Positions 1,284 to 60,960 of a DNA stretch of 64,000 nucleotides are shown piece after piece. The notes below the pieces were generated by a model. The model did not search any database. It was not told where the DNA came from and saw only the letters and a list, made by a program, of their open reading frames with translations. The translations under genes and the position numbers were made by a program. Source of the stretch: an uncultured Bacilli bacterium (lineage in GTDB: Bacteria; Bacillota_I; Bacilli_A; RF39; UBA660); the NCBI GenBank assembly GCA_934122275.1, contig CAKOWI010000001.1:64726-128725 (forward strand). The letters run 5' to 3'. Position 1 is the first letter of the stretch; every line of letters begins with the position of its first letter.

Positions 1284-3455
1284 TTAGACAGGATCTATTA
1301 AACTTAGCGAAACCTTTTCTTTTTCTTTATCTATATCAATTACATAACAATCAATTATATCTCCTACACTCAAAATATCTGATGGATGCTTTATATAATC
1401 TTTAGATATTTTTGATATATGAATAAGTCCATCATTATGAAGTCCTATGTCTATAAACACACCAAAATCAATAACATTTCTAACAGTACCTTGCAACTTC
1501 ATTCCAATTTTTAAATCATCAATAGATAATACATCACTTTTTAATATAGGCTGTGCATATTCATCTCTAGGATCTCTATTAGGTTTTTTTAAACTACTTA
1601 TTACATCTTCTAACGTATAGCAATCCGTACCTAATTTACTAGCATATTTTTCAACATTAATGTTATTTAACTTACTTATTAATGCATCACTTGCAATATC
1701 TTTAATATCAAACCTTAGTTCCTTTAATAAATTTAATGCAACATCATAACTTTCTGGATGTATACTAGTTTCATCTAGTATGTTTTTACCTTCCGTTATC
1801 CTTAAAAAACCAATCGCTTGTTCATATACTTTATCACTTAATAATTTCTTTTTCTTTATCTCTTCTCTAGAATTAATTTTACCATGTTCTTTTCTATAAG
1901 ATATTATTTTATCAATATTATTTTTCTTAATACCAGAAACATACTTTAATAAAGACTGAGATGCTGTATTAACATTTACTCCAACACTATTAACGGCTTT
2001 TTGTACAACAAAGTCTAAGCTTTCAGATAATTTTTTACCTGCTACATCATGCTGATATAGTCCTACACCAATACCTTCTGGTGGTACTTTAACAAGTTCT
2101 GATAGTGGATCTTGAAGTCTTCTTCCAATTGATACGGCACTTCTTTTTTCAACAGCTAAATCTGGAAATTCTTCTATCGCTATTTTTGATGCACTATATA
2201 TTGATGCACCAGCTTCCGACACAATTACATACTTACAAGAAAGATTATATTCTTTAATTAAATCAGCACAAAATTTCTCTGATTCACGAGATGCAGTACC
2301 ATTACCAATAGCGATTAAATCAACATTATATTTTTTTATTAATTCTAAAACTTTTAATTTACAAGAATTTAATGAATCATCACTAATATTTTTTAAGAAA
2401 GGTTTCACAACACATGAATCCATATAATTACCAGTTTTATCAATAACGGCTAACTTACATCCATTAATAAATCCAGGATCAAATGCAAGTACTACTTTTT
2501 CTTTCATAGGAGGTGTTAACAATAATGCTTCTAAATTCTTACTAAAGTTTTCAATCGCACTATCTACTCCTTTTTCTGTTAAATCACTTCTTATTTCTCT
2601 TTGTACAGAAGGATAAATAAGTCTCTTATAACTATCTTCTATAGCTTCTTTTATGTACTTAACACAAAAACTTTTTTCATCTTTTATGTTTTTATTTTGT
2701 AAGTATTCTATTATTCTTTCACTATCAATTTCTATTTTAACGTTTATAACGTTTTCTTTTTCTGCCCTATTTATTGCAAGAATTCTATGTGGTTTTATTT
2801 TATTTACTGCCTCACTATAGTCATAATACATTTCATAAATCTTATTTTCATCTTTAGCATCTTTTTTTACCTTTGACGTTAATATTCCAAACCTATACAT
2901 ATTATTTCTTATGTTCTTTCTGTAACTTGCATTATCGCTTATCCACTCTGCTATTATATATTTAGCACCTTCTGTAGCAGAATCTGCATCTTTAACATTT
3001 TCATTAATAAATTTTTCTGTTAACTTACTTACATCACCATTTAATGGACAAGACATAATTATTTTAGCGAGCGGCTCAAGTCCGTTCTTTATTGCATCTG
3101 TCGCTTTTGTTTTCTTTTTTTCCTTATATGGTCTATATAAGTCTTCTACTTCAACTAATTTAGTAGAATCCATTATTTGTTTTTTTAATTCATCTGTTAA
3201 TAGTCCTTTTTCATCAATTAACCGTATAACATCTTCTTTTCTTTTAAGTAAATTAACCTGATACTCATATGCATCTTCAATAACTTTTATTTGTTCTTCT
3301 GTAAGACCACCTGTTTTTTCTTTTCTATATCTAGCAATAAATGGTATTGTATTTCCTTCACTTAACATAGAAAGAGTTACATTAACTTGATTTTCAGTTA
3401 TATTTAAATTTAAGGCTATTTCCTTAATAATATTTTCGTTCATTTTATCCTCCAT
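1284..3455 (-). CDS. tex: Tex-like transcription accessory / RNA-binding protein with C-terminal S1 domain
   Basis: 723-aa ORF with the hallmark N-terminus TIPFIARYRKEKTGGL and a C-terminal S1 fold (GTVRNVIDFGVFIDIG..DGLIHISK). Confidence 0.85.
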   Translation of the reverse strand: MEDKMNENIIKEIALNLNITENQVNVTLSMLSEGNTIPFIARYRKEKTGGLTEEQIKVIEDAYEYQVNLLKRKEDVIRLIDEKGLLTDELKKQIMDSTKLVEVEDLYRPYKEKKKTKATDAIKNGLEPLAKIIMSCPLNGDVSKLTEKFINENVKDADSATEGAKYIIAEWISDNASYRKNIRNNMYRFGILTSKVKKDAKDENKIYEMYYDYSEAVNKIKPHRILAINRAEKENVINVKIEIDSERIIEYLQNKNIKDEKSFCVKYIKEAIEDSYKRLIYPSVQREIRSDLTEKGVDSAIENFSKNLEALLLTPPMKEKVVLAFDPGFINGCKLAVIDKTGNYMDSCVVKPFLKNISDDSLNSCKLKVLELIKKYNVDLIAIGNGTASRESEKFCADLIKEYNLSCKYVIVSEAGASIYSASKIAIEEFPDLAVEKRSAVSIGRRLQDPLSELVKVPPEGIGVGLYQHDVAGKKLSESLDFVVQKAVNSVGVNVNTASQSLLKYVSGIKKNNIDKIISYRKEHGKINSREEIKKKKLLSDKVYEQAIGFLRITEGKNILDETSIHPESYDVALNLLKELRFDIKDIASDALISKLNNINVEKYASKLGTDCYTLEDVISSLKKPNRDPRDEYAQPILKSDVLSIDDLKIGMKLQGTVRNVIDFGVFIDIGLHNDGLIHISKISKDYIKHPSDILSVGDIIDCYVIDIDKEKEKVSLSLIDPV

Positions 3456-3496
3456 TTAATCAAAATAAAAACACTAGCAATTGCTAATGATAAAAT

Positions 3497-3811
3497 TTAG
3501 AATTTTTTTCTTTTTATAAATATTTTTACTACAAAGAATAAAAATATTGCCATTATAACTACATATACCCAAATAAGTACAGTATTAAATATTCCAGATG
3601 TATATTTATTTACAACTGCAGGTATTGATGCTGGGATATAAGTTTTTATAAAAGCTCTTATCTCTTTAATTGGTACATATCCATTTATTAAATTAAGTAT
3701 TCTAAATAATATATCTATCATTCCAAATCCAAACATATAAGTCTGAAATCTTTTTGAATATATTATTACAAATACTAAAAGTACTACTAGCACAACTAAA
3801 TCTAAATACAT
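3497..3811 (-). CDS. small integral membrane protein, unknown function
   Basis: ORF with three hydrophobic segments. I prefer the ATG at 3811 (MYLDLVVL...) because GGAGG lies 7 nt upstream; the track ORF extends to 3844. Confidence 0.45.
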   Translation of the reverse strand: MYLDLVVLVVLLVFVIIYSKRFQTYMFGFGMIDILFRILNLINGYVPIKEIRAFIKTYIPASIPAVVNKYTSGIFNTVLIWVYVVIMAIFLFFVVKIFIKRKKF

Positions 3812-3915
3812 TATAACCTCCATATGATATAAAAATAATAACATATTTTAACGTAATATACAATCGATTAAGGACAAAAAAAGAACTCTTATATAATAAG
3901 AGTTTTGTTGCATAA

Positions 3916-3992
3916 ATGGTGGACCGTTAGGGATTCGAACCCTAGACCCACTGATTAAGAGTCAGTTGCTCTACCAACTGAGCTAACGGTCC
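3916..3992 (-). tRNA. tRNA-Lys (anticodon CTT), CCA encoded
   Basis: The reverse complement folds as a cloverleaf: GGACCGT acceptor, GCTC/GAGC D-stem, anticodon arm ACTGA-CTCTTAA-TCAGT, T-arm TAGGG-TTCGAAT-CCCTA, then ACGGTCC-A-CCA. Confidence 0.9.
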
Positions 3993-4048
3993 ATGTAAAT
4001 TACTTAATAAGTATAATACAAAATATTTAAATTGTAAATACTTTTATA

Positions 4049-4125
4049 TGGTGGACGCTATAGGACTCGAACCTATGACCCCCTGCTTGTAAGGCAGGTG
4101 CTCTAACCAACTGAGCTAAGCATCC
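4049..4125 (-). tRNA. tRNA-Val (anticodon TAC), CCA encoded
   Basis: Reverse complement: GGATGCT acceptor, anticodon arm CCTGC-CTTACAA-GCAGG, T-arm ATAGG-TTCGAGT-CCTAT, then AGCGTCC-A-CCA. Confidence 0.9.
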
Positions 4126-4209
4126 ACTTGCATAAGTATTTTACTACAAGTTTTTTAAAATAGCAATTCTTTTTTTTAAAATGTGATTAAATTCGTATGA
4201 AATTTAATT

Positions 4210-4563
4210 TTATCCCACACTAGGTATTCTTACAATCCATTTTGTATAACATTTAGTTTCATTAGTTATTTTTCCAGATACTTTAAAACTTTTAGAACTT
4301 TTAAAATAAGTAACTTCTGATGATGAAGCACTATCGTCTTTAGTTAGTTCAGTTGTATATGCAGTAATTGGATTTCCATTTAAAGCTATACTAAGCCTTG
4401 CACATCCTTCCTCGGTGAAAAAAGAAAACCAACAAAATCCTAACAAAAAAAACATAATTAAAACATTGATTATTTTCATTCCAGCTTTAATCAAAAGAAC
4501 AACAGCACCTATCACCAATATTAAAACAATCCACTTTGTTATTTCAGTCATCATAATCATCAC
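4210..4563 (-). CDS. membrane-anchored hypothetical protein
   Basis: 117-aa ORF with two N-terminal hydrophobic helices and a soluble C-terminal half. No recognisable motif. Confidence 0.4.
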   Translation of the reverse strand: MMIMMTEITKWIVLILVIGAVVLLIKAGMKIINVLIMFFLLGFCWFSFFTEEGCARLSIALNGNPITAYTTELTKDDSASSSEVTYFKSSKSFKVSGKITNETKCYTKWIVRIPSVG

Positions 4564-4602
4564 TCCTATTATATTATAATTTTTATATAAAACTTTTATT
4601 CA

Positions 4603-5295
4603 TCATAAAGTACGTACATCATAAGTGTAACTATTATTTAGTGAAAAATCAACATCATCAACGATTTTATTAACGTAACTTTCTAATTCTTTAACGTTAC
4701 ATGCTAAATATACCACGTTTATGTTTTCACTTTTTAATTTACCAAGTATTTCATCATCAACATAACAACCATTAAAAAACACAGCATTTACTTTAGCATT
4801 ATCTCTTTTTAATCTATCAATCTGTTTTAGCAGTTTTTTTCCTATATTCTTATACTTAACAATCTCTAATAACCTATTATTTTTTACTGTATTTAAGTCA
4901 TCTGCATCTATATAATTATTCTTATTTCCAATTATTTGTTCTGCAACTTTAACCTCACAATAATTATCTACTCCATTATTATCTCTAAAATATAAGTCAG
5001 CTTTCATTTGTTCTTTACCGCTTTCCATATAAATTGGAAACTCATTATAAACATTATAACCTAATCCACTATAATAATTTGTTGCAAGTAAATTACCATA
5101 TATACCAAGTAAGTTTTTAGATAATTGTTTTTTACTATTCTTATTTTGATTACTTACTAATTTATCATAAAATAACATAACTAAATCTATATTCATCTTT
5201 CTTGCTAAATCAAAAACCGATGTAGATACTCCGCACTCTATCATAATATTTTTGACTTGTAAATATTTTTCTTTATTAATAGTAACCCGTTTCAT
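4603..5295 (-). CDS. hypothetical protein with a possible YraN / PD-(D/E)xK nuclease-like core
   Basis: 230-aa ORF. The segment GNLLATNYYSGLGYNVYNEF...KADLYF...NYCEVKV resembles the YraN-type pattern (G..A..yL...Gy.i...N....D.....vEVK). This is inference from motif spacing only. Confidence 0.35.
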   Translation of the reverse strand: MKRVTINKEKYLQVKNIMIECGVSTSVFDLARKMNIDLVMLFYDKLVSNQNKNSKKQLSKNLLGIYGNLLATNYYSGLGYNVYNEFPIYMESGKEQMKADLYFRDNNGVDNYCEVKVAEQIIGNKNNYIDADDLNTVKNNRLLEIVKYKNIGKKLLKQIDRLKRDNAKVNAVFFNGCYVDDEILGKLKSENINVVYLACNVKELESYVNKIVDDVDFSLNNSYTYDVRTL

Positions 5296-5410
5296 ACTAC
5301 ACCTCTATATTATTCTATCATATCATTCATTGTTAAAACAGAAACAAACTAAATATTTGGCATAAATTTACATTTTATTATATAAAGTTATCATATTATT
5401 TAAGTTTATA

Positions 5411-5419
5411 TGCTATAAT
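5411..5419 (+). promoter_or_regulatory. extended -10 promoter element (TGCTATAAT) for the 5440-7404 operon
   Basis: TGnTATAAT lies 21 nt upstream of the ATG at 5440, with the GAGGTGA RBS in between. No good -35 element. Confidence 0.4.
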
Positions 5420-5439
5420 TAAGTGCATGAGGTGATAAT

Positions 5440-5955
5440 ATGGCAGAAAGCTTAGTACATACTTTTCTAGGATTATTTGATGGTTTAAAAAATATTCCAT
5501 ATGGAAAGGAATTAATAGTTTTTATAATTTCATTAATGCCAATATTAGAATTACGTGGTGGTTTAATAGCGGCAGCATTATTAGGATTAAATATAGTCCC
5601 TTCATTTATTATTTGCTTAATAGGTAATTTACTTCCGATACCATTTATTTTATGGCTCATTACTCCCATTTTTAACTGGCTTAAGAAAACTAAACATTTT
5701 AGTAAAATGGTAAATAAAATAGAAAAGAAAGCTTTAAGAAAGAAAGATAAAATAGAAAAAGCAGAGTTTTTTGGACTTTTATTCTTCGTTGGTGTTCCAC
5801 TACCAGGAACTGGTGGATGGACTGGAAGTTTAATAGCAGCTTTAATTAATATGGATAAGAAAAAAGCACTTTTAGCGATTACTCTTGGTGTTATTTTAGC
5901 GGGTGTTATAGTTGGAAGTTTGTCTTTTGGACTATTAAAAGGAATTTTAGGATAA
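5440..5955 (+). CDS. small multidrug-export-like membrane protein (COG2426 family)
   Basis: 171-aa polytopic ORF with PILELRGGL and GVPLPGTGGWTG motifs characteristic of this family. Confidence 0.6.
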   Translation: MAESLVHTFLGLFDGLKNIPYGKELIVFIISLMPILELRGGLIAAALLGLNIVPSFIICLIGNLLPIPFILWLITPIFNWLKKTKHFSKMVNKIEKKALRKKDKIEKAEFFGLLFFVGVPLPGTGGWTGSLIAALINMDKKKALLAITLGVILAGVIVGSLSFGLLKGILG

Positions 5956-38804: not shown

Positions 38805-39896
38805 CTATGATAATGCGTTTGTTAAATCTATGTTTTCCTCTTTTATTTGTTCTTCAGTTTTAACATCTATTCTATAATGAGTAAGTCTAGCTGCTAACTT
38901 TACATTTTGACCTTTTCTTCCAATTGCTAGTGATAAATTATCGCCTTCTGCAACTGCTAAAGCCTCTTTCTTCTTTTCATCTAATATGTATACTTTTACA
39001 TTTTTAGCTGGAGATAAAGCGTTTTTTATAAATTGAATTGGGTCTTTATCATATTTAACAACATCAATTTTTTCACCATTTAACTCTTTAGTTATATTAT
39101 TTATTCTAGAACCTTTTTCACCAATACAAGCTCCAACTGCATCTATAGATTGATCTTCAGAATAAACAGCTATTTTGCTTCTTGATCCTGGATCTCTTGC
39201 TACACTGTATAGCATAACAGTTCCATCACTAAGTTCTGGTATTTCTTTTTCAAGTAGACGCTTAACAAAACCATAATGACTTCTAGAAAGTAATATCAAA
39301 GGGCTTTTACCAGTGTTATCAATTTTAGTGACATAAACCTTAATTGATGATCCCATGGCAAGACTTTCACCAGGAATTAATTCTTTTTTAGGTAAAACAC
39401 CATGCATTCTGCCTAAATCAACATAGTAATTAGTAGCATCTTCTCTTGATAAAGTACCTACTAATAACTCTCCTTCTTTATCCTCAAATTCAGACATTAT
39501 ACTTTGTCTTTCAGCTTCTCTTACCTTTTGCACTAATATTTGTTTAGCTGTCATAGTAGCTACTCTACAAAAATCTTTTAAAGATACTTCTTCTTCTATT
39601 GTTTCACCTGGTTTTATGTCAGGTACTATTTTTTTAGCATCTTCTAATAATATTTCTACTGAATCATCATCTTCATCATCACTTCCGTCACTATACTCTG
39701 TAACAACTTTTTGATATGAAAATCCTTTTATTTTTCCTGTAGTTTTATCAATTTCTATTCTTATATTAGGAAGACCAGTTTCTTTCGTATAAGCCTTTTG
39801 TAATGCTTGAGTCATTCCATCAAATATTACTTCTTCAGAAATATTCTTCTCTTCACATATATCCTTTAAAGCTTTTATAAATTCTTTATTATTCAT
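38805..39896 (-). CDS. nusA: transcription termination/antitermination factor NusA
   Basis: 363 aa with the NusA N-terminal domain, S1 and two KH domains (GACIGEKGSRI, AIGRKGQNVKLA). Confidence 0.95.
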   Translation of the reverse strand: MNNKEFIKALKDICEEKNISEEVIFDGMTQALQKAYTKETGLPNIRIEIDKTTGKIKGFSYQKVVTEYSDGSDDEDDDSVEILLEDAKKIVPDIKPGETIEEEVSLKDFCRVATMTAKQILVQKVREAERQSIMSEFEDKEGELLVGTLSREDATNYYVDLGRMHGVLPKKELIPGESLAMGSSIKVYVTKIDNTGKSPLILLSRSHYGFVKRLLEKEIPELSDGTVMLYSVARDPGSRSKIAVYSEDQSIDAVGACIGEKGSRINNITKELNGEKIDVVKYDKDPIQFIKNALSPAKNVKVYILDEKKKEALAVAEGDNLSLAIGRKGQNVKLAARLTHYRIDVKTEEQIKEENIDLTNALS

Positions 39897-44510: not shown

Positions 44511-45614
44511 ATGAAAAAAATTAATTATGGTATTATTATTCCTATTTTTATCTTTTTTATAATAAGTATAATTTCAATTTATAGTACATCAATTAATTCG
44601 AGTAATATATTATCTAGGCAAGTAATCTACTATATAATTGGGTTTGGTATAATAATTTTATTTCAAAAAATAGATACCAAAAACATATTTAAATATACCA
44701 TCTTTTTTTATATATTGGGAAATATATTACTTTTGCTACTTCTATTCTTTGGAGAAGAAATAAACGGTTCAAAGTGTTGGTTTGTAATACCAAAAGTTGG
44801 ATCTTTTCAGCCAAGTGAATTTATGAAATTAATTCTTATAATTATGAATGCAAATATATTTGAAATGTATGATAGAAAAAACGAAAAAAGAAGTATAAAA
44901 ACAGATGTCAAGCTTTTCTTCACAATCATGATTATAACCTTAATACCATCAATTTTAACGTTTCTAGAACCTGATACTGGTGCTATTATAATATACTTTC
45001 TAATATCATTTGTAATGTTATTCTCATTTGGAATCAAAAACATTATTTTTATAGTAATCATTGTTATTTCTTCAATTTTATTAGCTGCGTTTTTTTATTT
45101 TTACTTTAACTATCAAACTAAATTTATAGATATTTTTGGAACATCATTCTTTTATAGAATTGATAGAATACTGGATTGGTCTAACAAAAGCGGAATGCAA
45201 CTTACTAATGCACTAGCATCAATTAAAGCAGCTCACCTATTTGGATTTGGTATAGGAAAAACTCCGATATACATACCAGAACGACATACTGATTTTATAT
45301 TTTCAATATATGCAAGTAATACTGGACTAATTGGAGTTATAGTTTTAATAGTTACTATTGCCATATTTGATGTTTGTATTCTTATAAAAGCAAATGAATT
45401 ATATGTTAAAAAATATAAATTTGTAATAATCGGTTTCTTTGCTATGTTGTTATATCAACAAATTCAAAATATTGGTATGAATATAGGACTTCTTCCTATA
45501 ACTGGAATTACACTACCCTTTATAAGTTATGGAGGTTCTTCTTTATTGTGTTACATGACAGGTATTGGTATTATTTTAGGTCTTGATAAAGCAAAAAAAT
45601 CAACTAAAGGATAG
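44511..45614 (+). CDS. FtsW/RodA/SpoVE-family protein (second paralog)
   Basis: 367 aa with QPSEFMKL, PDTGA and LPITGITLPFISYGGSS. Confidence 0.85.
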   Translation: MKKINYGIIIPIFIFFIISIISIYSTSINSSNILSRQVIYYIIGFGIIILFQKIDTKNIFKYTIFFYILGNILLLLLLFFGEEINGSKCWFVIPKVGSFQPSEFMKLILIIMNANIFEMYDRKNEKRSIKTDVKLFFTIMIITLIPSILTFLEPDTGAIIIYFLISFVMLFSFGIKNIIFIVIIVISSILLAAFFYFYFNYQTKFIDIFGTSFFYRIDRILDWSNKSGMQLTNALASIKAAHLFGFGIGKTPIYIPERHTDFIFSIYASNTGLIGVIVLIVTIAIFDVCILIKANELYVKKYKFVIIGFFAMLLYQQIQNIGMNIGLLPITGITLPFISYGGSSLLCYMTGIGIILGLDKAKKSTKG

Positions 45615-45860
45615 TTGATTTTGCAATTACAAAGTATTAGTAAAATCTATTTAGATTATTTTTCATTAGAATCCGTTAACTTAATTAATTAAGATACTAA
45701 TATTCATTAGTATCTGACTGTTTGAAATATCATTATTTATTGATTGCTTCAAATACAGACAATCGTTTTTGTAAATCAGAGCTTATCGATATTACGAGAA
45801 AAATAGACAATTTATAAAAAGTGTGCTTAATGATGTGTTTAAATAATATATGTATAATAA

Positions 45861-45882
45861 AAACCCTCAAAGGTAAGGGTTT
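45861..45882. terminator. hairpin terminator flanking the tRNA fragment
   Basis: AAACCCT / AGGGTTT stem with flanking A/T runs. This is the same tRNA-end-plus-terminator architecture seen at 17991-18030. Confidence 0.5.
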
Positions 45883-45893
45883 GCTTCTTAATA

Positions 45894-45917
45894 TGGTGAC
45901 GCGTATGGGATTTGAAC
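45894..45917 (-). repeat. orphan 24-nt tRNA 3' fragment = prophage attachment-site remnant
   Basis: The reverse complement GTTCAAATCCCATACGCGTCACCA is a T-loop half, acceptor 3' strand and CCA. The upstream sequence cannot complete a tRNA. Confidence 0.65.
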
Positions 45918-46094
45918 TATATATAATTTTAAAGTTTGTTGCTATATAAGGTTTTGCTGAATTTTTCTTTATTCTACAACGTTTTAATATAGTCTTAATG
46001 TCAATGTCACATTGTTTAAATCAATACTAGTTTGACATGAAACAAGACCAAAACAAGACCAAAGTTAAGAAAAAAACATTGACACAAAATTTAT

Positions 46095-46247
46095 TTAATT
46101 CTTTGCTGAAAACAAATACCAGCCATTAATTAAATATTCAATTCTATCATCATGAATAATGTAAGATACTCGTCTAATATCATTATTGTATTCTTTAAAG
46201 TATTTTTGAGCGAATTGTTTTAACTCTACTCTATTCATATTTTTCAT
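46095..46247 (-). CDS. small hypothetical phage protein (not in the ORF track)
   Basis: 50-aa ORF MKNMNRVELKQFAQKYF... with a strong RBS GAGGGGGG 7 nt upstream. Confidence 0.35.
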   Translation of the reverse strand: MKNMNRVELKQFAQKYFKEYNNDIRRVSYIIHDDRIEYLINGWYLFSAKN

Positions 46248-46338
46248 AATATCCCCCCTCAAGCGAATATAGTATCATACTTGATTGTAGAAATTTGTCG
46301 TAATATAAAAAAAGACCTGGAAATTAATCCAGGTTTTT

Positions 46339-47028
46339 TTAATATCTAAATCCGTATTCAACTAATTTTGCTAAAGTCTTAGGACCTGTACATCCATCTG
46401 CTACAAGTCCAGTTCTTCTTTGAAATTCTTTGATACTTGCAATTAAGTTTGGTCCATATAAGTTGCCTAAAGCCTTAACTGATGTATAACTTGGGAATGT
46501 CTTTCTCATGAATGAAGCTATCTTCCCTACATTAGTGTTATTGTCTCCACGTTTAAAGTAACCTCTAGCTGGCAAAAAGTTATTAGTACTAACTGGTGTA
46601 CTAGCTTCTGTATATGAATATTGTTCAGGATTAATATATTGTCCATTTGATAAATTTACTATAGATAAATGAAGGTGTATTCCTGTAGCTTTTCCACTCA
46701 TACCAGTATATCCTATCAGAGTACCTCTTGATACTGTTTGCCCTGCTTTACAATTAACACTAGATAAGTGATAGTGTAACATTTTAACATTTAATCTAGG
46801 ATATTTAATCCATACATATTTACCACCTAGCTTATCAGTACCAGCGCTTAATACAATCCCATTTTCAAGGGCATATTGAGGTATTTTAGCCCCATATGTT
46901 CCATAATCCGTTCCATTGTGAAATGAGCTCGTATTGCCTGCTTTTGTACTTATAATACGCCTCCAACCGAATGAACTTGTCACACAGTGTTTTGCATTAT
47001 TGAAAATTATATTAGTTATCTTGCTCAT
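46339..47028 (-). CDS. endolysin: M23 peptidase + C-terminal PG_binding_1 domain
   Basis: 229 aa with HNGTD (HxxxD) and GIHLHLS (HxH), and a C-terminus FQRRTGLVADGCTGPKTLAKL. Confidence 0.85.
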   Translation of the reverse strand: MSKITNIIFNNAKHCVTSSFGWRRIISTKAGNTSSFHNGTDYGTYGAKIPQYALENGIVLSAGTDKLGGKYVWIKYPRLNVKMLHYHLSSVNCKAGQTVSRGTLIGYTGMSGKATGIHLHLSIVNLSNGQYINPEQYSYTEASTPVSTNNFLPARGYFKRGDNNTNVGKIASFMRKTFPSYTSVKALGNLYGPNLIASIKEFQRRTGLVADGCTGPKTLAKLVEYGFRY

Positions 47029-56832: not shown

Positions 56833-57321
56833 ATGAAAAAGTTATTGATTTTAGTAGTGTGTTGTTTATGTTTGTGTGGGTGTGGTAATGACTTTGAAGG
56901 TTATAATTACAATTCGAGAACTTCTATAACTACGTCAAGTATTACAACATCAAGAAGTACTACACAGAAAACTAATATTACTGTCGAGAATAATGATTAT
57001 GATTTTGATATTTCTTTAAAAGAAATGTCAGAAATATATTACAACAACGAACTTGATGGAAACAAAAAGTTTTTTGGAAAAAAAGTAAAAACAAAGGCAA
57101 AATTCAATCAAGTAAGTACTGGAACTTTTAGTGGACTTATAGCATACTTTGATGAATTAGACTCAATATATGGTATTTATTGCGTTAGTTTTGACAAAAA
57201 AACAAAGAATAAATTAAATACGTTTAATCGTAATGAAGTTTTAACCGTAATAGGTACTGTTGACACATTATCAAGTTCCTCAATAAAGTTCAAAAATTGC
57301 AATATTAATAAATCATCTTAA
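56833..57321 (+). CDS. lipoprotein with OB-fold (tRNA_anti-like) domain; prophage moron
   Basis: 162 aa. Signal peptide plus lipobox MKKLLILVVCCLCLCGC. The mature part, ISLKEMSEIYYNNELDGNKKFFGKKVKT...VLTVIGTV, resembles the tRNA_anti-like OB family. It is the only plus-strand gene in the tail block. Confidence 0.7.
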   Translation: MKKLLILVVCCLCLCGCGNDFEGYNYNSRTSITTSSITTSRSTTQKTNITVENNDYDFDISLKEMSEIYYNNELDGNKKFFGKKVKTKAKFNQVSTGTFSGLIAYFDELDSIYGIYCVSFDKKTKNKLNTFNRNEVLTVIGTVDTLSSSSIKFKNCNINKSS

Positions 57322-57333
57322 ATTACTTTTTTA

Positions 57334-59499
57334 TCAAACTGGTATATTAATTGGACATACACCAGTTTGTTTTGTTCTTTGGTTTATTCTATCAACAATC
57401 GTTCCTTCATCGGTATGTACATGAACATCAATTTCACTAGATTGATTGTCAAATTGGCTCATAGCCTGTGACATTCCATTTATAATGAATTCTTGTAATA
57501 TTGAACAATCTGGATTAATATTTTTTATTGATTCTGGAATGTCATAATTTAAATTCAGTTTATATTTTGCATCCGCAAATGTTTTTTGTGTTTCTTCAAT
57601 TAAAGTTTCAGCTGTTCGTTTTAGTTTAGGGATTTCATCTTCCATTCCTGTTAATATACCATCTGTTGTATAATTACCTACTTTTGCATCTATTACAAGT
57701 CTAGATGGCGAATGTATTCCCAAAGCATCTTTTATACCGGATACAAAGGATTTACCCCAATTTTTTAATTTTCTTCCAAAACCAAACATACCATCAATTA
57801 TTCCATCTAATATATTGATGCCTAAGTGTTTCCAATCAATTTGTTTTATAGCATCTTTTGTTTTATTCCATAAATTGACACCAAAATTAGCAAGTGCTGT
57901 TCCTATATTCAATATTCCATTTACTATTCCAATCAACACTTTTTTACCTAATTCTAACCAATTAGTTTTCGTAATAGTTTTCCACATAGTTCCTACGGCT
58001 TGGCCAGCATAATAGAAAAATTTGTTTGGAAGTTCTTTCAACCAAGTAACGATTTCAGTCATTTTATTTATTGCTTTAGGAACAAAATCAATTATTGAGT
58101 TTATTATATTTTTTACTGCAGTTGCAAAAATTTCATTAACTTTTGAGAACCAAGTTTTCCAATTTTCGAATAAGTTTATAGCCATCTTTCCCATATCTTC
58201 AAAGGCTTTATTAAAATCGCCATGTATTAAATCAGAAATTATTTTACAAGTTCCACTTATAGTGTCAAAAATATTAGAAAATACAAATACAATAGTTTCA
58301 TATATTGTTTTGACTACAGCTACAACTTTTTCTTTCATAATATTCCATATAGGTTTAGTGATGCCCCATATTTCAGATACTGTAGATGTTATGACCCCAA
58401 ATAAATCCTTAAATAATCTGGACACAGATGATACCATATCGTTAACTTTATTTTTGAAAGTATCGTTTGTATTGTACGCATGTATTAAAGAACCAGTCAA
58501 AGCGACAACCCCTGCTATTATTAGTCCTAATGCGCCCGTTGAAATTCCTAAAGTTGAAGTCAATCCACTAAAACCACTAGACAGTAACCCAAGTTTGGAT
58601 GTTACGGATGTAAATACAGTTGATAATGTGCTGAATAATTTAGATATTCCAGTTAATTTTGCAAACTTACTTAAAATTCTAAATAAATTGACAAAACCTA
58701 ATGCAATACCTAAAGAGGCCCATAATTTTCCTTGAGTATTCAACCCTTTCCACCATTTAATGATGTTAGATAGTGTTTTATCAATTCCCCCATACTTCCA
58801 CGAAACTTCGCCAGTTAATGGGTCTATTTCTTTTGTAAAACCTAACCATTCCATTATTTTGTCTCTTATCTGAGTGGCTTTCATCTTAACTTTATCCATA
58901 CCATTATCGTAACCTTTAATGGCATCTAACAATCTCTGATCTATTCCACCAGATGTGCCTCCTGAGCCACTTGAACCACTTCCACTATTTTTGTTTTCGT
59001 CAATGTTATGTATCTCATCAAATCCCAAAACTTGTCTCTTTAATTCTTTGACTTTTTTACCTGCTTTGTCAGCACTACTACCCACTCCACCTAATGAATC
59101 AGTGTATTTATCTACTGATGCAATTCCAGTATTATAATCTTTTAATTTAATACCAAACATAGATGCTATTGCTTTTGTCACTTCTTTTATTACCATTAAT
59201 ATTGCATTGGCATACGGTAATATTTGAGCAAATGCACCAATAAACAGACTTGATAACGCAACCTTAGTTTCGGTTAACTGCTGTCTGAATATTTTCATTT
59301 GGTTACTTGGTGATTCCAAATTGTTTGCAAAGTCACCCATCGCTATGTTTGCTTGTTTTAATGTCGCTATATATCTAAGGATTTCTTTTTCAGCCTGAGA
59401 TAATTCTTTTACTTTTTTATCTATACCCAGTGAATCAAGTATAGGTTGCATTGATGTTTGAGTAACATCAATCCCATATGATCTTAAAGGCTTTGTTTG
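57334..59499 (-). CDS. tape measure protein, exon 2
   Basis: The reading frame continues from exon 1 (..EALRAGVYAG | QTKPLRSYGIDVTQ..). It has hydrophobic G/S/T-rich central segments typical of TMPs. There is no RBS before the track's ATG at 59511. The exact 3' splice site (59499 or 59508) is unresolved. Confidence 0.75.
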   Translation of the reverse strand, partial: QTKPLRSYGIDVTQTSMQPILDSLGIDKKVKELSQAEKEILRYIATLKQANIAMGDFANNLESPSNQMKIFRQQLTETKVALSSLFIGAFAQILPYANAILMVIKEVTKAIASMFGIKLKDYNTGIASVDKYTDSLGGVGSSADKAGKKVKELKRQVLGFDEIHNIDENKNSGSGSSGSGGTSGGIDQRLLDAIKGYDNGMDKVKMKATQIRDKIMEWLGFTKEIDPLTGEVSWKYGGIDKTLSNIIKWWKGLNTQGKLWASLGIALGFVNLFRILSKFAKLTGISKLFSTLSTVFTSVTSKLGLLSSGFSGLTSTLGISTGALGLIIAGVVALTGSLIHAYNTNDTFKNKVNDMVSSVSRLFKDLFGVITSTVSEIWGITKPIWNIMKEKVVAVVKTIYETIVFVFSNIFDTISGTCKIISDLIHGDFNKAFEDMGKMAINLFENWKTWFSKVNEIFATAVKNIINSIIDFVPKAINKMTEIVTWLKELPNKFFYYAGQAVGTMWKTITKTNWLELGKKVLIGIVNGILNIGTALANFGVNLWNKTKDAIKQIDWKHLGINILDGIIDGMFGFGRKLKNWGKSFVSGIKDALGIHSPSRLVIDAKVGNYTTDGILTGMEDEIPKLKRTAETLIEETQKTFADAKYKLNLNYDIPESIKNINPDCSILQEFIINGMSQAMSQFDNQSSEIDVHVHTDEGTIVDRINQRTKQTGVCPINIPV

Positions 59500-60336
59500 C
59501 ATTACATTCATATAAGTTCGCTACTCTTATACCGTTCTCCTACGAACTGCTATATATTTCCATATAGATTAGACTATATCTTCATCTTTTCAGATGTTCC
59601 CCACTTCCACTCGCTTGAGTGTACTCCGACGCCTCGGATAGTCGTTAGCGGTTTCTTAACAATATTTCCAAATATAATTTTTATGTTGTTTCTTTTCACC
59701 ACGGCATACTTCTGAAATATGTCCTTGCGAAAAACCGGTTTGTCTTTTCGCTTCATTTGCTGATGGGTATATTTTAATTAATTTCATATCCATATCATAT
59801 TGAGCCACTTTTTTTGAACAACCATCATTTTTCATAATTCTTAATTTGTTTTTTAATGCGTGATTATTCTGTTCCTTTACAGTTGCCCATTCAAGATTAG
59901 AAATACAATTATTTTGTTTGTTTCCGTCTATGTGATTTACTGTTGGTTTGTTTTCCAAATTTGGAATAAACTCAATAGCAACTAGTCTGTGAACTCTTCT
60001 ATATATTCTTCTATTGTTTTCACATAAGCAAACTCTAAAATAATTATCCTTATCTTTAAAATTTTTTAAATTTCTATATCCATTCGCTAATTTTTTCCTT
60101 ACATTTCCCAAGTTTGATATTTCGTAAGTTTTCGTTTCTGATATAGTTTTCCATGTTTCTTTCATAAGTTATCACCAACTTATGTGTATCACATTATCCA
60201 CTACACTTTCACTACAGTCTACATATATTGTTAAGATTTCCGACGGGATTGCCTTCAACTTTACTTGGTAAGGTGTTCCCCGTTTTCAAGGAATTGTTTT
60301 TGTATATTATTTCTAATACACCGAGCCATTTTATTA
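59500..60336 (-). mobile_element. group I intron carrying an HNH homing endonuclease
   Basis: P1 can form between the exon end CGGGU and the intron GCUCG, with a U.G pair at the splice site. P7 candidates are GACTAT (59643-59638) / ATAGTC (59577-59572) within the hallmark AAGATATAGTC box also present in the Tetrahymena intron. A P8-like hairpin CACTC-AAGC-GAGTG is present. The ORF is looped out 5' of P7. Confidence 0.75.
59656..60165 (-). CDS. HNH homing endonuclease (NUMOD4 + HNH_3 + IENR/NUMOD1-like tail)
   Basis: 169 aa with WKTISETKTYEISNLGNVRK (NUMOD4), HRLVAIEFIPN...VNHIDGNKQNNCISNLEW (HNH), and a C-terminal YPSANEAKRQTGFSQGHISEVCRG. Confidence 0.85.
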   Translation of the reverse strand: MKETWKTISETKTYEISNLGNVRKKLANGYRNLKNFKDKDNYFRVCLCENNRRIYRRVHRLVAIEFIPNLENKPTVNHIDGNKQNNCISNLEWATVKEQNNHALKNKLRIMKNDGCSKKVAQYDMDMKLIKIYPSANEAKRQTGFSQGHISEVCRGEKKQHKNYIWKYC

Positions 60337-60960
60337 ACCCGCGTATACGCCAGCCCTTAATGCTTCCGCGACCTTATCTTCGCTTTTGTTATATAATGAC
60401 GCCAAATCATAAGTTAATTTAGTCATTGTTTCAGACATTATTGCAGAATATTTATCTTTTATACCAACAGTCTCACCCATTGATTGAAATATACCTTGCA
60501 TATATAATGTCTCTGTTTTATTAGTTCCAAATTTTTCATTTAGTTTATATTGAAACTGTGTTGCTGATTTGCCTAATTCTGAAAATGTTTGTTTTCCATT
60601 TTTTTCAATATTGTCAAATACAACATTAAACAAGTTCAATTGTTCAGTATAATCAACTGCTTCATTCATCCAACCAAGTAATGATTGTGTTAGTCTTTTA
60701 ACACCAGTAAAAGTAAATACCGACTTTAATGCACTTCCAAGTTTATCCGTACTAGATGTTGTCTTGTCAATCGTATTTTTTAGCTGATTAACATTTGAGT
60801 TAGCATTATTAACAGAACCAGTTTTCAATTTACTGTCAATGCTAGAAACAGTTCGTTCCAAATTAGTTAACTTTGATACTAGTTTATCAACATTTGATAA
60901 CGCTTCTTGGGCTTTTGATTGAATTTGGAGTTCTAATGTTTGTTCATTCATTCTTTTCAC
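60337..60960 (-). CDS. tape measure protein, exon 1
   Basis: 207 codons with an N-terminal coiled coil, ending ..ALRAGVYAG directly before in-frame TAATAA, which I interpret as the intron 5' end. Confidence 0.75.

Follow-up and report, generated by a model that had tools for sequence, protein, structure and literature searches.

Tape measure protein (TMP) genes of phages and prophages are documented hosts of group I introns. In prophages of the Bacillus cereus group, introns of subgroups IA1 and IA2 occupy three TMP sites (TMP-IVS1, IVS2, IVS3a and IVS3b; Tourasse and Kolsto 2008, PMC2504315). Homologous introns are found there at different sites, to which they are adapted via helix P1; some copies lack an endonuclease gene, and that of IVS3a encodes an H-N-H enzyme (PMC2504315). 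TMP has been called a 'frequently interrupted gene', and in Vibrio phage ICP1, whose endonuclease content differs between isolates, a TMP gene interrupted by an HNH-3 endonuclease gene is spliced, as seen by RNA sequencing and reverse transcription PCR (Barth et al. 2023, PMC10448857). Here we analyze the TMP gene in a 64,000-nucleotide stretch (the window) of contig CAKOWI010000001.1 from an uncultured Bacilli bacterium. This prophage gene very probably contains a group I intron of subgroup IA2, related to that of the T4 td gene, with a gene for an endonuclease like I-HmuI of Bacillus phage SPO1. A preliminary description of the same DNA regarded TMP as a less usual intron host, a view contradicted by the interrupted TMP genes already on record (PMC2504315, PMC10448857).

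The window intron shares with the B. cereus-group introns its IA1/IA2 type, its location in a prophage TMP gene and the presence of several sites per gene family. The TMP family and hosts, likened here by description, are different, and whereas loss of the endonuclease gene is seen in some B. cereus-group copies, an intact gene persists in most copies at the window's site. The ICP1 gene, also likened by description, similarly consists of two TMP fragments separated by an HNH_3 endonuclease gene; ICP1, however, is lytic with a Gram-negative host, and its splicing was demonstrated experimentally, whereas that of the window gene is predicted from sequence. Group I introns in TMP genes, including HNH-bearing ones, are thus already known, and what is new is a different TMP family and host group. 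Homing introns in conserved regions of TMP genes form a known pattern, to which the locus adds one further lineage. It opens no new question, and its main value lies in correct annotation and in a well-resolved allele series.

The whole feature lies on the minus strand, where three separate open reading frames (ORFs) of 205, 169 and 725 amino acids (aa) are called. The frame of exon 1 closes with ..EALRAGVYAG followed by TAA at 60336-60334. The listed ORF (60960..60334) begins at a GTG, and the TMP start is likely ATG 60951, which has GGTGA in front of it, because homologs begin MNEQTLELQ. The TMP frame picks up again at 59499 (QTKPLRSYGIDVTQ, QTKPLR..), 837 nucleotides (nt) downstream of the break, with QTKPLRSYGIDVTQ read from the fifth codon of the third ORF (59511..57334). 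ATG 59511, in frame and 12 nt ahead of the exon-2 sequence, has no usable Shine-Dalgarno sequence in range, the nearest AGGAG being 25 nt upstream. In a PHROG search the third ORF gave strong TMP matches, down to 6.4e-38, and the first a weak one; by tblastn, the TMP sequence matched annotated TMPs. Its position also fits that of a TMP gene in a tail module after chaperone genes: upstream neighbours in relatives carry DUF5055, with gene order kept, and a tail-tip protein gene lies downstream.

The limits of the insert were sought with the fused exon-1/exon-2 peptide as query. Homologs P0001, P0002, P0009 and P0023 proved uninterrupted across ..RAGVYAG/QTKPLR.. (a slash marks the junction here and below), and three intron-less genomic alleles (L001-L003) have GCTGGT/CAAACAAAGCC. 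An exact-sequence lookup placed the exon-2 ORF in the same 90% cluster as proteins of 926 aa, the length of the stop-free TMP obtained by splicing in silico. One such intron-less protein, P0146, is 97% identical to the spliced product with 0 gaps. The corresponding genomic allele, L024, is near-isogenic with the window gene and has the empty site ..GTATACGCTGGG/CAAACAAAGCCTTTG... Because intron-less alleles match the spliced product without gaps, the intron comprises 60336..59500. It is preceded by U60337 at the 5' splice site and ends with G59500, directly before CAAACA; a terminal G is present in 9/9 same-site introns. With U at -1 and this G, both predicted splice sites are canonical for group I introns. 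The predicted ligated junction is GCGGGU/CAAACA (GCGGGU/CAAACAAAG), with the predicted junction peptide ..AGVYAGQTKPLR... The frame break with resumption about 840 nt on, the lack of a ribosome-binding site before the resumed frame, the G ahead of the 3' exon and the splice sites themselves are therefore as the preliminary description had proposed.

For the RNA fold, nine distinct same-site introns were aligned after stripping of the P6a loop, and a td-like IA2 structure was written on the window sequence. All helices of the full fold from P1 to P9.2, including P7.1/P7.2 and the P3/P7 pseudoknot, form in 9/9 introns. Across 15 helices, 98.3% of 757 cells are paired, versus 35-45% when partners are slid by 1-3 columns, and compensatory changes occur in 25 of 85 pairs versus 0-6 in these slid-partner controls. 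Such changes are seen in P1, P2, P3, P4, P5, P6, P6a, P7.1, P7.2, P8, P9 and P9.2 (4/6 pairs in P3, 3/4 in P7.1 and 2/5 in P7.2); P7 is invariant. In P1, the internal guide begins at intron nt 11 and U60337 pairs with G at the splice site, a U-G pair invariant in 9/9 sequences. Exon position -4 pairs as G-C in eight sequences and as A-U in L011, both bases having changed together. The endonuclease gene is enclosed by P6a, a helix of 12 bp (UCUUAACAAUAU with AUAUUGUUAAGA). The extra hairpins P7.1 and P7.2, located between P7 and the P3 3' strand, were reportedly taken by Michel and Westhof in 1990 to mark subgroup IA2. Several elements of this fold had been picked out in the preliminary description and are present: P1 of CGGGU with GCUCG 10 nt inside the intron, with its U.G pair; GACTAT and ATAGTC as P7; and two hairpins, CCGA-GGCG-TCGG and CACTC-AAGC-GAGTG, which are P7.1 and P7.2 and covary in relatives. 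ATAGTC falls within AAGATATAGTC, which agrees with the Rfam group I consensus gAAGAUAUAGUC.

An ortholog at the same site that has no ORF (L011) matches the full Rfam group I model (RF00028, Intron_gpI; gathering cut-off 50 bits) at 60.1 bits, with an E-value of 5.9e-15. The 3' ~150 nt of the window intron are similar by blastn to DNA in many of 591 matching phage records, and the genes matched include Bacillus phage thymidylate synthase, AR9 terminase and Brochothrix A9 ribonucleotide reductase. All three kinds of gene are classic group I hosts. Assignment of the insert to group I, subgroup IA2, with predicted self-splicing, is well supported by the fold and these matches.

The td intron provides a close comparison. 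Its sequence as used here matches T4 records at 100%, under td and I-TevI annotation. With its ORF removed, this intron (L023) aligns with the whole window ribozyme at 62% identity over 270 columns. Helix order is the same, including P7.1 and P7.2 between P7 and the P3 3' strand, and blocks AAACGGGGAAC, CAAUCCCGU, CUAACGACUAUCC and GAUAUAGUCU (P4 strands, J6/7-P7, J8/7-P7) are the same or almost the same. The 3' ends (UGAAnnUAAUG) also resemble each other, P1 forms on an exon ending GGGU, and the endonuclease ORF is looped from P6a in both. The two differ in host gene (td versus TMP) and host (coliphage versus prophage of a low-GC spore-former), in the endonuclease (GIY-YIG I-TevI versus an unrelated, I-HmuI-like HNH enzyme), and in the sequence and length of P5, P8 and P9.1.

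Table 1. Positions in the window of the interrupted TMP gene, the predicted intron and its parts.
Feature	Position	Strand	Evidence
TMP exon 1, 205 aa, MNEQTLELQ...RAGVYAG	60337..60951	-	203/205 aa same as intron-less P0146
TMP exon 2, 721 aa + stop, opens QTKPLRSYGIDVTQ	57334..59499	-	PHROG tape measure families
Predicted group I intron, subgroup IA2 (T4 td-like), 837 nt, begins UAAUAAAAUGGCUCGG, finishes UGAAUGUAAUG	60336..59500	-	intron-less alleles, covariation, Rfam, td alignment
Homing endonuclease gene, 169 aa, NUMOD4 + HNH_3 + NUMOD1, I-HmuI-like	59656..60165	-	Pfam, PHROG, PDB 1U3E
Ribozyme 5' half	60225..60321	-	covariation; AAACGGGGAAC and CAAUCCCGU same as T4 td
Ribozyme 3' half	59500..59665	-	Rfam, covariation, blastn similarity
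P1, exon CGGGU 60341..60337 + internal guide GCUCG 60326..60322	60322..60341	-	covariation
P2	60321..60302	-	covariation
P3, 5' strand and 3' strand	60293..60288; 59602..59597	-	covariation
P4	60283..60278 with 60248..60243	-	covariation
P5/P5a	60273..60252	-	covariation
P6, 5' strand and 3' strand	60242..60240; 59651..59649	-	covariation
P6a, 5' strand and 3' strand	60236..60225; 59665..59654	-	covariation
P7, 5' strand GACUAU and 3' strand ATAGTC	59643..59638; 59577..59572	-	Rfam consensus, invariant
J8/7 + P7 3' strand, AAGAUAUAGUC	59582..59572	-	Rfam, fold
P7.1	59637..59626	-	covariation
P7.2	59621..59608	-	covariation
P8	59596..59583	-	covariation
P9; P9.1; P9.2	59567..59550; 59547..59534; 59532..59510	-	fold
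Mosaic patch flanking insertion site	58900..60437	-	comparison with near-isogenic intron-less allele L024

The ORF within the insert had been described as a free-standing NUMOD4/HNH_3 endonuclease of 169 aa at 59656-60165, and both domains score above their Pfam cut-offs: HNH_3 with 40.1 bits (cut-off 24.8; 2.9e-10) and NUMOD4 with 39.4 bits (cut-off 23.4; 6.9e-10). NUMOD1 also matches (23.2 bits, cut-off 22.8), and a PHROG search matched HNH endonuclease at 1.9e-44. The ORF sits in the P6a loop, with its own GGTGA Shine-Dalgarno sequence 6 nt upstream of the ATG and its stop codon within the P6a 3' strand. Homology to I-HmuI, a nicking enzyme encoded in the SPO1 DNA polymerase intron, is full length (PDB 1U3E chain M, E-value 1.1e-18, residues 5-168 versus chain residues 3-170). 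The proteins are of similar size (169 versus 174 aa) and share the layout of a NUMOD4-type N-terminal sheet, HNH and C-terminal helix-turn-helix, with about one-third identity as judged by eye from the alignment and with TMP as the predicted target gene in the present case. In the H-N-N motif, His and the two Asn align (VNHIDGNKQNN..NL versus VDHKDGNKDNN..NL in I-HmuI). All six intact same-site orthologs, with 70-80% identity to the window protein, share the motif VNH.DGNK.NN...NL.WAT.

A hairpin at 60166-60186 holds the Shine-Dalgarno GGUGAU in its loop, and its 7-bp core stem (AUAAGUU with AACUUAU) ends at the AUG; the minimum-free-energy fold has 9 pairs and -8.1 kcal/mol in the window. Among the relatives checked, L019 and L021 lack this hairpin, and L005 has a weak form of it. 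It is therefore probably not a conserved control element, and we make no claim of translational control.

Alleles of the gene at the window's insertion point (site A) form a graded series. A genome scan yielded six loci, and most same-site introns were retrieved protein by protein from metagenome assemblies. Site A is empty in L001-L003 and L024. It contains an intron with a full HNH ORF in the window (169 aa) and in L005, L006, L008, L016, L017 and L019 (164-176 aa in these relatives), an intron with just a 46-aa NUMOD4 remnant in L021 (2625-3051), and a 309-nt insert without ORF in L011 (3107-3415). L011 still holds the last ~30 nt of the endonuclease ORF (..ATTACATTTGGAAATATAAAAACTATTAA), because those bases make the P6a 3' strand. 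Occupied and empty alleles thus coexist among the sampled loci.

Comparison with L024 revealed a mosaic patch in the exons on either side of the intron. Between -100 and +599 nt relative to the junction, the DNA is ~17.6% diverged from L024, versus ~1.7-1.8% elsewhere in the gene, and 123 of 160 gene mismatches fall in this interval. Identity is 99.8% from -500 to -101, 94.0% from -100 to -1, 80.5% from 0 to +599 and 96.8% from +600 to +1199. Such an asymmetric patch fits co-conversion of flanking exon DNA in homing, and agrees with a report that nuclease genes mark boundaries of genetic exchange between phages (PMC10448857).

The following course of events is drawn in its early steps from what is established for the group I class and in its last two partly from data gathered here. 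The TMP gene would be transcribed into a single pre-mRNA, in which the guide GCUCG and the last exon-1 bases CGGGU would make P1 with a U-G wobble at the splice site. The core (P4-P6 and P3-P9 domains) would bind an external guanosine, which would attack after U60337. The terminal G59500 would then enter the G-binding site in P7, and ligation of the exons would yield one 926-aa TMP; on unspliced RNA, translation would halt on entering the intron, which opens with UAA. The P6a loop would give rise to the separately translated 169-aa HNH endonuclease, which presumably nicks or cuts empty ..GCTGGT/CAAACAAAGCC.. alleles, and repair would copy the intron and flanking exon DNA into the cut intron-less allele. 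The ~700-nt diverged exon patch centred on the insertion site would be a product of such co-conversion. The comparisons made here establish the insertion boundaries, the covarying RNA fold, homology to td and I-HmuI, and the existence of alleles with full, decayed or absent endonuclease genes and of the empty site. Homing, and cutting of the intron-less allele by the endonuclease, we infer from them.

Several results weigh against this picture. An Rfam scan of the whole window at gathering thresholds returned 3 tRNAs and no group I match. A permissive local scan gave RF00028 at 37.3 bits, below cut-off (E-value 1.2e-7), with P8, J8/7-P7 and P9 well aligned on the 3' core and the 5' half forced into the ORF, where the alignment is meaningless. 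The window intron scores under the cut-off because the 510-nt ORF interrupts its core, so that the Rfam check proposed in the preliminary description gave no clean pass on the window copy; the ORF-less ortholog scores above the cut-off, and covariation supports the fold independently. A shuffle control of the covariation, in which observed values were reached in 0/500 shuffles, is inflated by the kinship by descent of the nine introns, which matters less for the slid-partner control and for the numbers of pairs and pair types. The search for a donor of the exon patch among 11 related loci turned up none with more than 80.5% identity in the tract, and ordinary recombination rather than homing could therefore explain the patch. 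In the endonuclease, the window protein and all same-site orthologs have Asn directly ahead of the catalytic His, and I-HmuI has Asp there (NH versus DH). Catalytic or metal-binding roles are assigned to the H-N-N motif residues and to the preceding Asp, and endonuclease activity therefore cannot be assumed; we regard it as probable, not certain. Catalysis, splicing and the endonuclease's target are predictions from sequence comparison. That the sequence features are not due to chance is clear from the covariation controls and the Rfam E-values, and a group I intron with an HNH homing endonuclease in a prophage TMP gene, as originally proposed, is the best-supported reading.

Three other accounts were weighed. 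A free-standing HNH gene may have split TMP into halves that are translated apart, the second from ATG 59511, and that assemble without splicing. Gene callers do give three ORFs, and the in-frame ATG stands 12 nt ahead of the exon-2 sequence, but this ATG is without a Shine-Dalgarno sequence and lies inside helix P9.2. Moreover, ~330 nt of non-coding RNA around the ORF are conserved and covary as a complete group I fold, the ORF-less ortholog retains a 309-nt insert above the Rfam group I cut-off, and comparison with intron-less alleles fixes the insert boundaries to the nucleotide, at a U in position -1 and a terminal G. Translation in pieces is accordingly highly improbable. A relic, in which a non-functional intron or endonuclease leaves the prophage defective and without TMP, we also consider very unlikely. 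The window covers only one end of the prophage, which may not be inducible, two relatives (L021 and L011) have decayed endonuclease genes, and the Asn that replaces the I-HmuI Asp could be read in the same way. The window copy, however, retains every helix intact, its core strands P7, J8/7 and P4 are the same as in eight relatives and T4 td, the endonuclease ORF is full length with its HNH motif kept, and the two open exons share 97% identity with an intact allele. Group II introns, inteins and IStron-like intron-transposon chimeras were considered as well, since they too are found in phage and clostridial genes. Nothing in favour of any of them was seen, and the probability that the insert is such an element is negligible: its sole ORF is the HNH endonuclease, with no reverse transcriptase or transposase ORF in the insert, and group I is the single Rfam family that the RNA matches. 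An intein was rejected because stop codons break the frame.

Site A is not the sole interrupted position in this gene family. In 103 homolog clusters, at least 55 stop exactly at VYAG (site A occupied), 10 stop at QTKPLxx (site B, 16 nt downstream of site A), at least 14 diverge past ..ANTI (site C, ~63 aa or ~190 nt downstream), and about 5 are clearly uninterrupted at all three sites. The site-B insert (L007, about 3147-4258; also L014 and L015) splits ..QTKPL/RSFG.., with deduced boundaries ACCAU/UAACAAUAUAG ... AUAAAG/UAAGAAG and a core GACUAU...AGAUAGUC; its 252-aa ORF has a weak GIY-YIG match (20.7 bits, cut-off 22.6) and an I-HmuI_NUMOD-like match. The site-C insert (L004, about 4478-5646; also P0003-P0017) splits ..ANTI/ESPSNQ.. 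and carries a 305-aa GIY-YIG/NUMOD1 ORF. Both follow the exon motif ACCAU, with near-identical 3' cores and clean U/...G/ boundaries, and they appear to be one intron family fitted to two sites, for which B. cereus TMP-IVS1 and IVS2 offer a precedent (PMC2504315). Local Rfam scans of the two inserts (L007 and L004) gave nothing at E <= 1, so that it is P7-like and P7.1-like motifs and the U/...G/ boundaries that point to group I. Taken together, these data lead us to suggest, tentatively and at slightly less than an even chance of its being right in full, that this TMP family, which occurs in prophages of gut Bacilli and clostridia-like bacteria, has an intron hot spot of three sites within ~200 nt of its conserved N-terminal region. 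Site A would hold a td-like IA2 intron with an HNH gene and sites B and C a related pair of GIY-YIG inserts, most sampled alleles being filled at one site. The window and L024 would be a near-isogenic occupied/empty pair recording recent homing, with an asymmetric co-conversion tract of ~700 nt left by a nicking-type endonuclease.

For annotation, the 205-, 169- and 725-aa ORFs should be merged into a spliced TMP of 926 aa with an intron-encoded endonuclease; without this, the prophage appears to have a broken tail gene. As the same interruption is present in at least 55 of the 103 related protein clusters, like mis-annotation is probably widespread in gut metagenome assemblies. The Rfam group I model at its gathering threshold overlooks ORF-containing phage introns, and default filters overlooked even an ORF-less one. 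A gathering scan of eight related loci with these filters gave no group I match, and L011 (3097-3365) was missed by such a scan and scored 60.1 bits once just 400 nt were searched.

The surrounding region appears to be a prophage end, the integrase end being outside the window, in a host whose CotZ and SpoVE-type genes suggest a low-GC spore-former. Chromosomal genes extend to ~45.6 kb and include NusA (38805-39896), a histidine kinase, CotZ and an FtsW/RodA/SpoVE-type protein (44511-45614). From 46.3 kb there follow a peptidase_M23/peptidoglycan-binding protein (46339-47028), GDSL-family proteins and a tail-tip protein, with tail genes to the window end. The prophage/chromosome junction is probably at about 45600-46340, with no integrase at this end. 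Megablast of the whole gene against the phage collection gave no match, so that no close isolate phage is available for comparison. Between TMP and the next tail gene, on the opposite strand (56833-57321, +), is a 162-aa ORF with a lipoprotein-like N-terminus (MKKLLILVVCCLCLCGCG) and a weak tRNA_anti-like match. It occupies the same place in L024 and could be a moron or a superinfection-exclusion lipoprotein.

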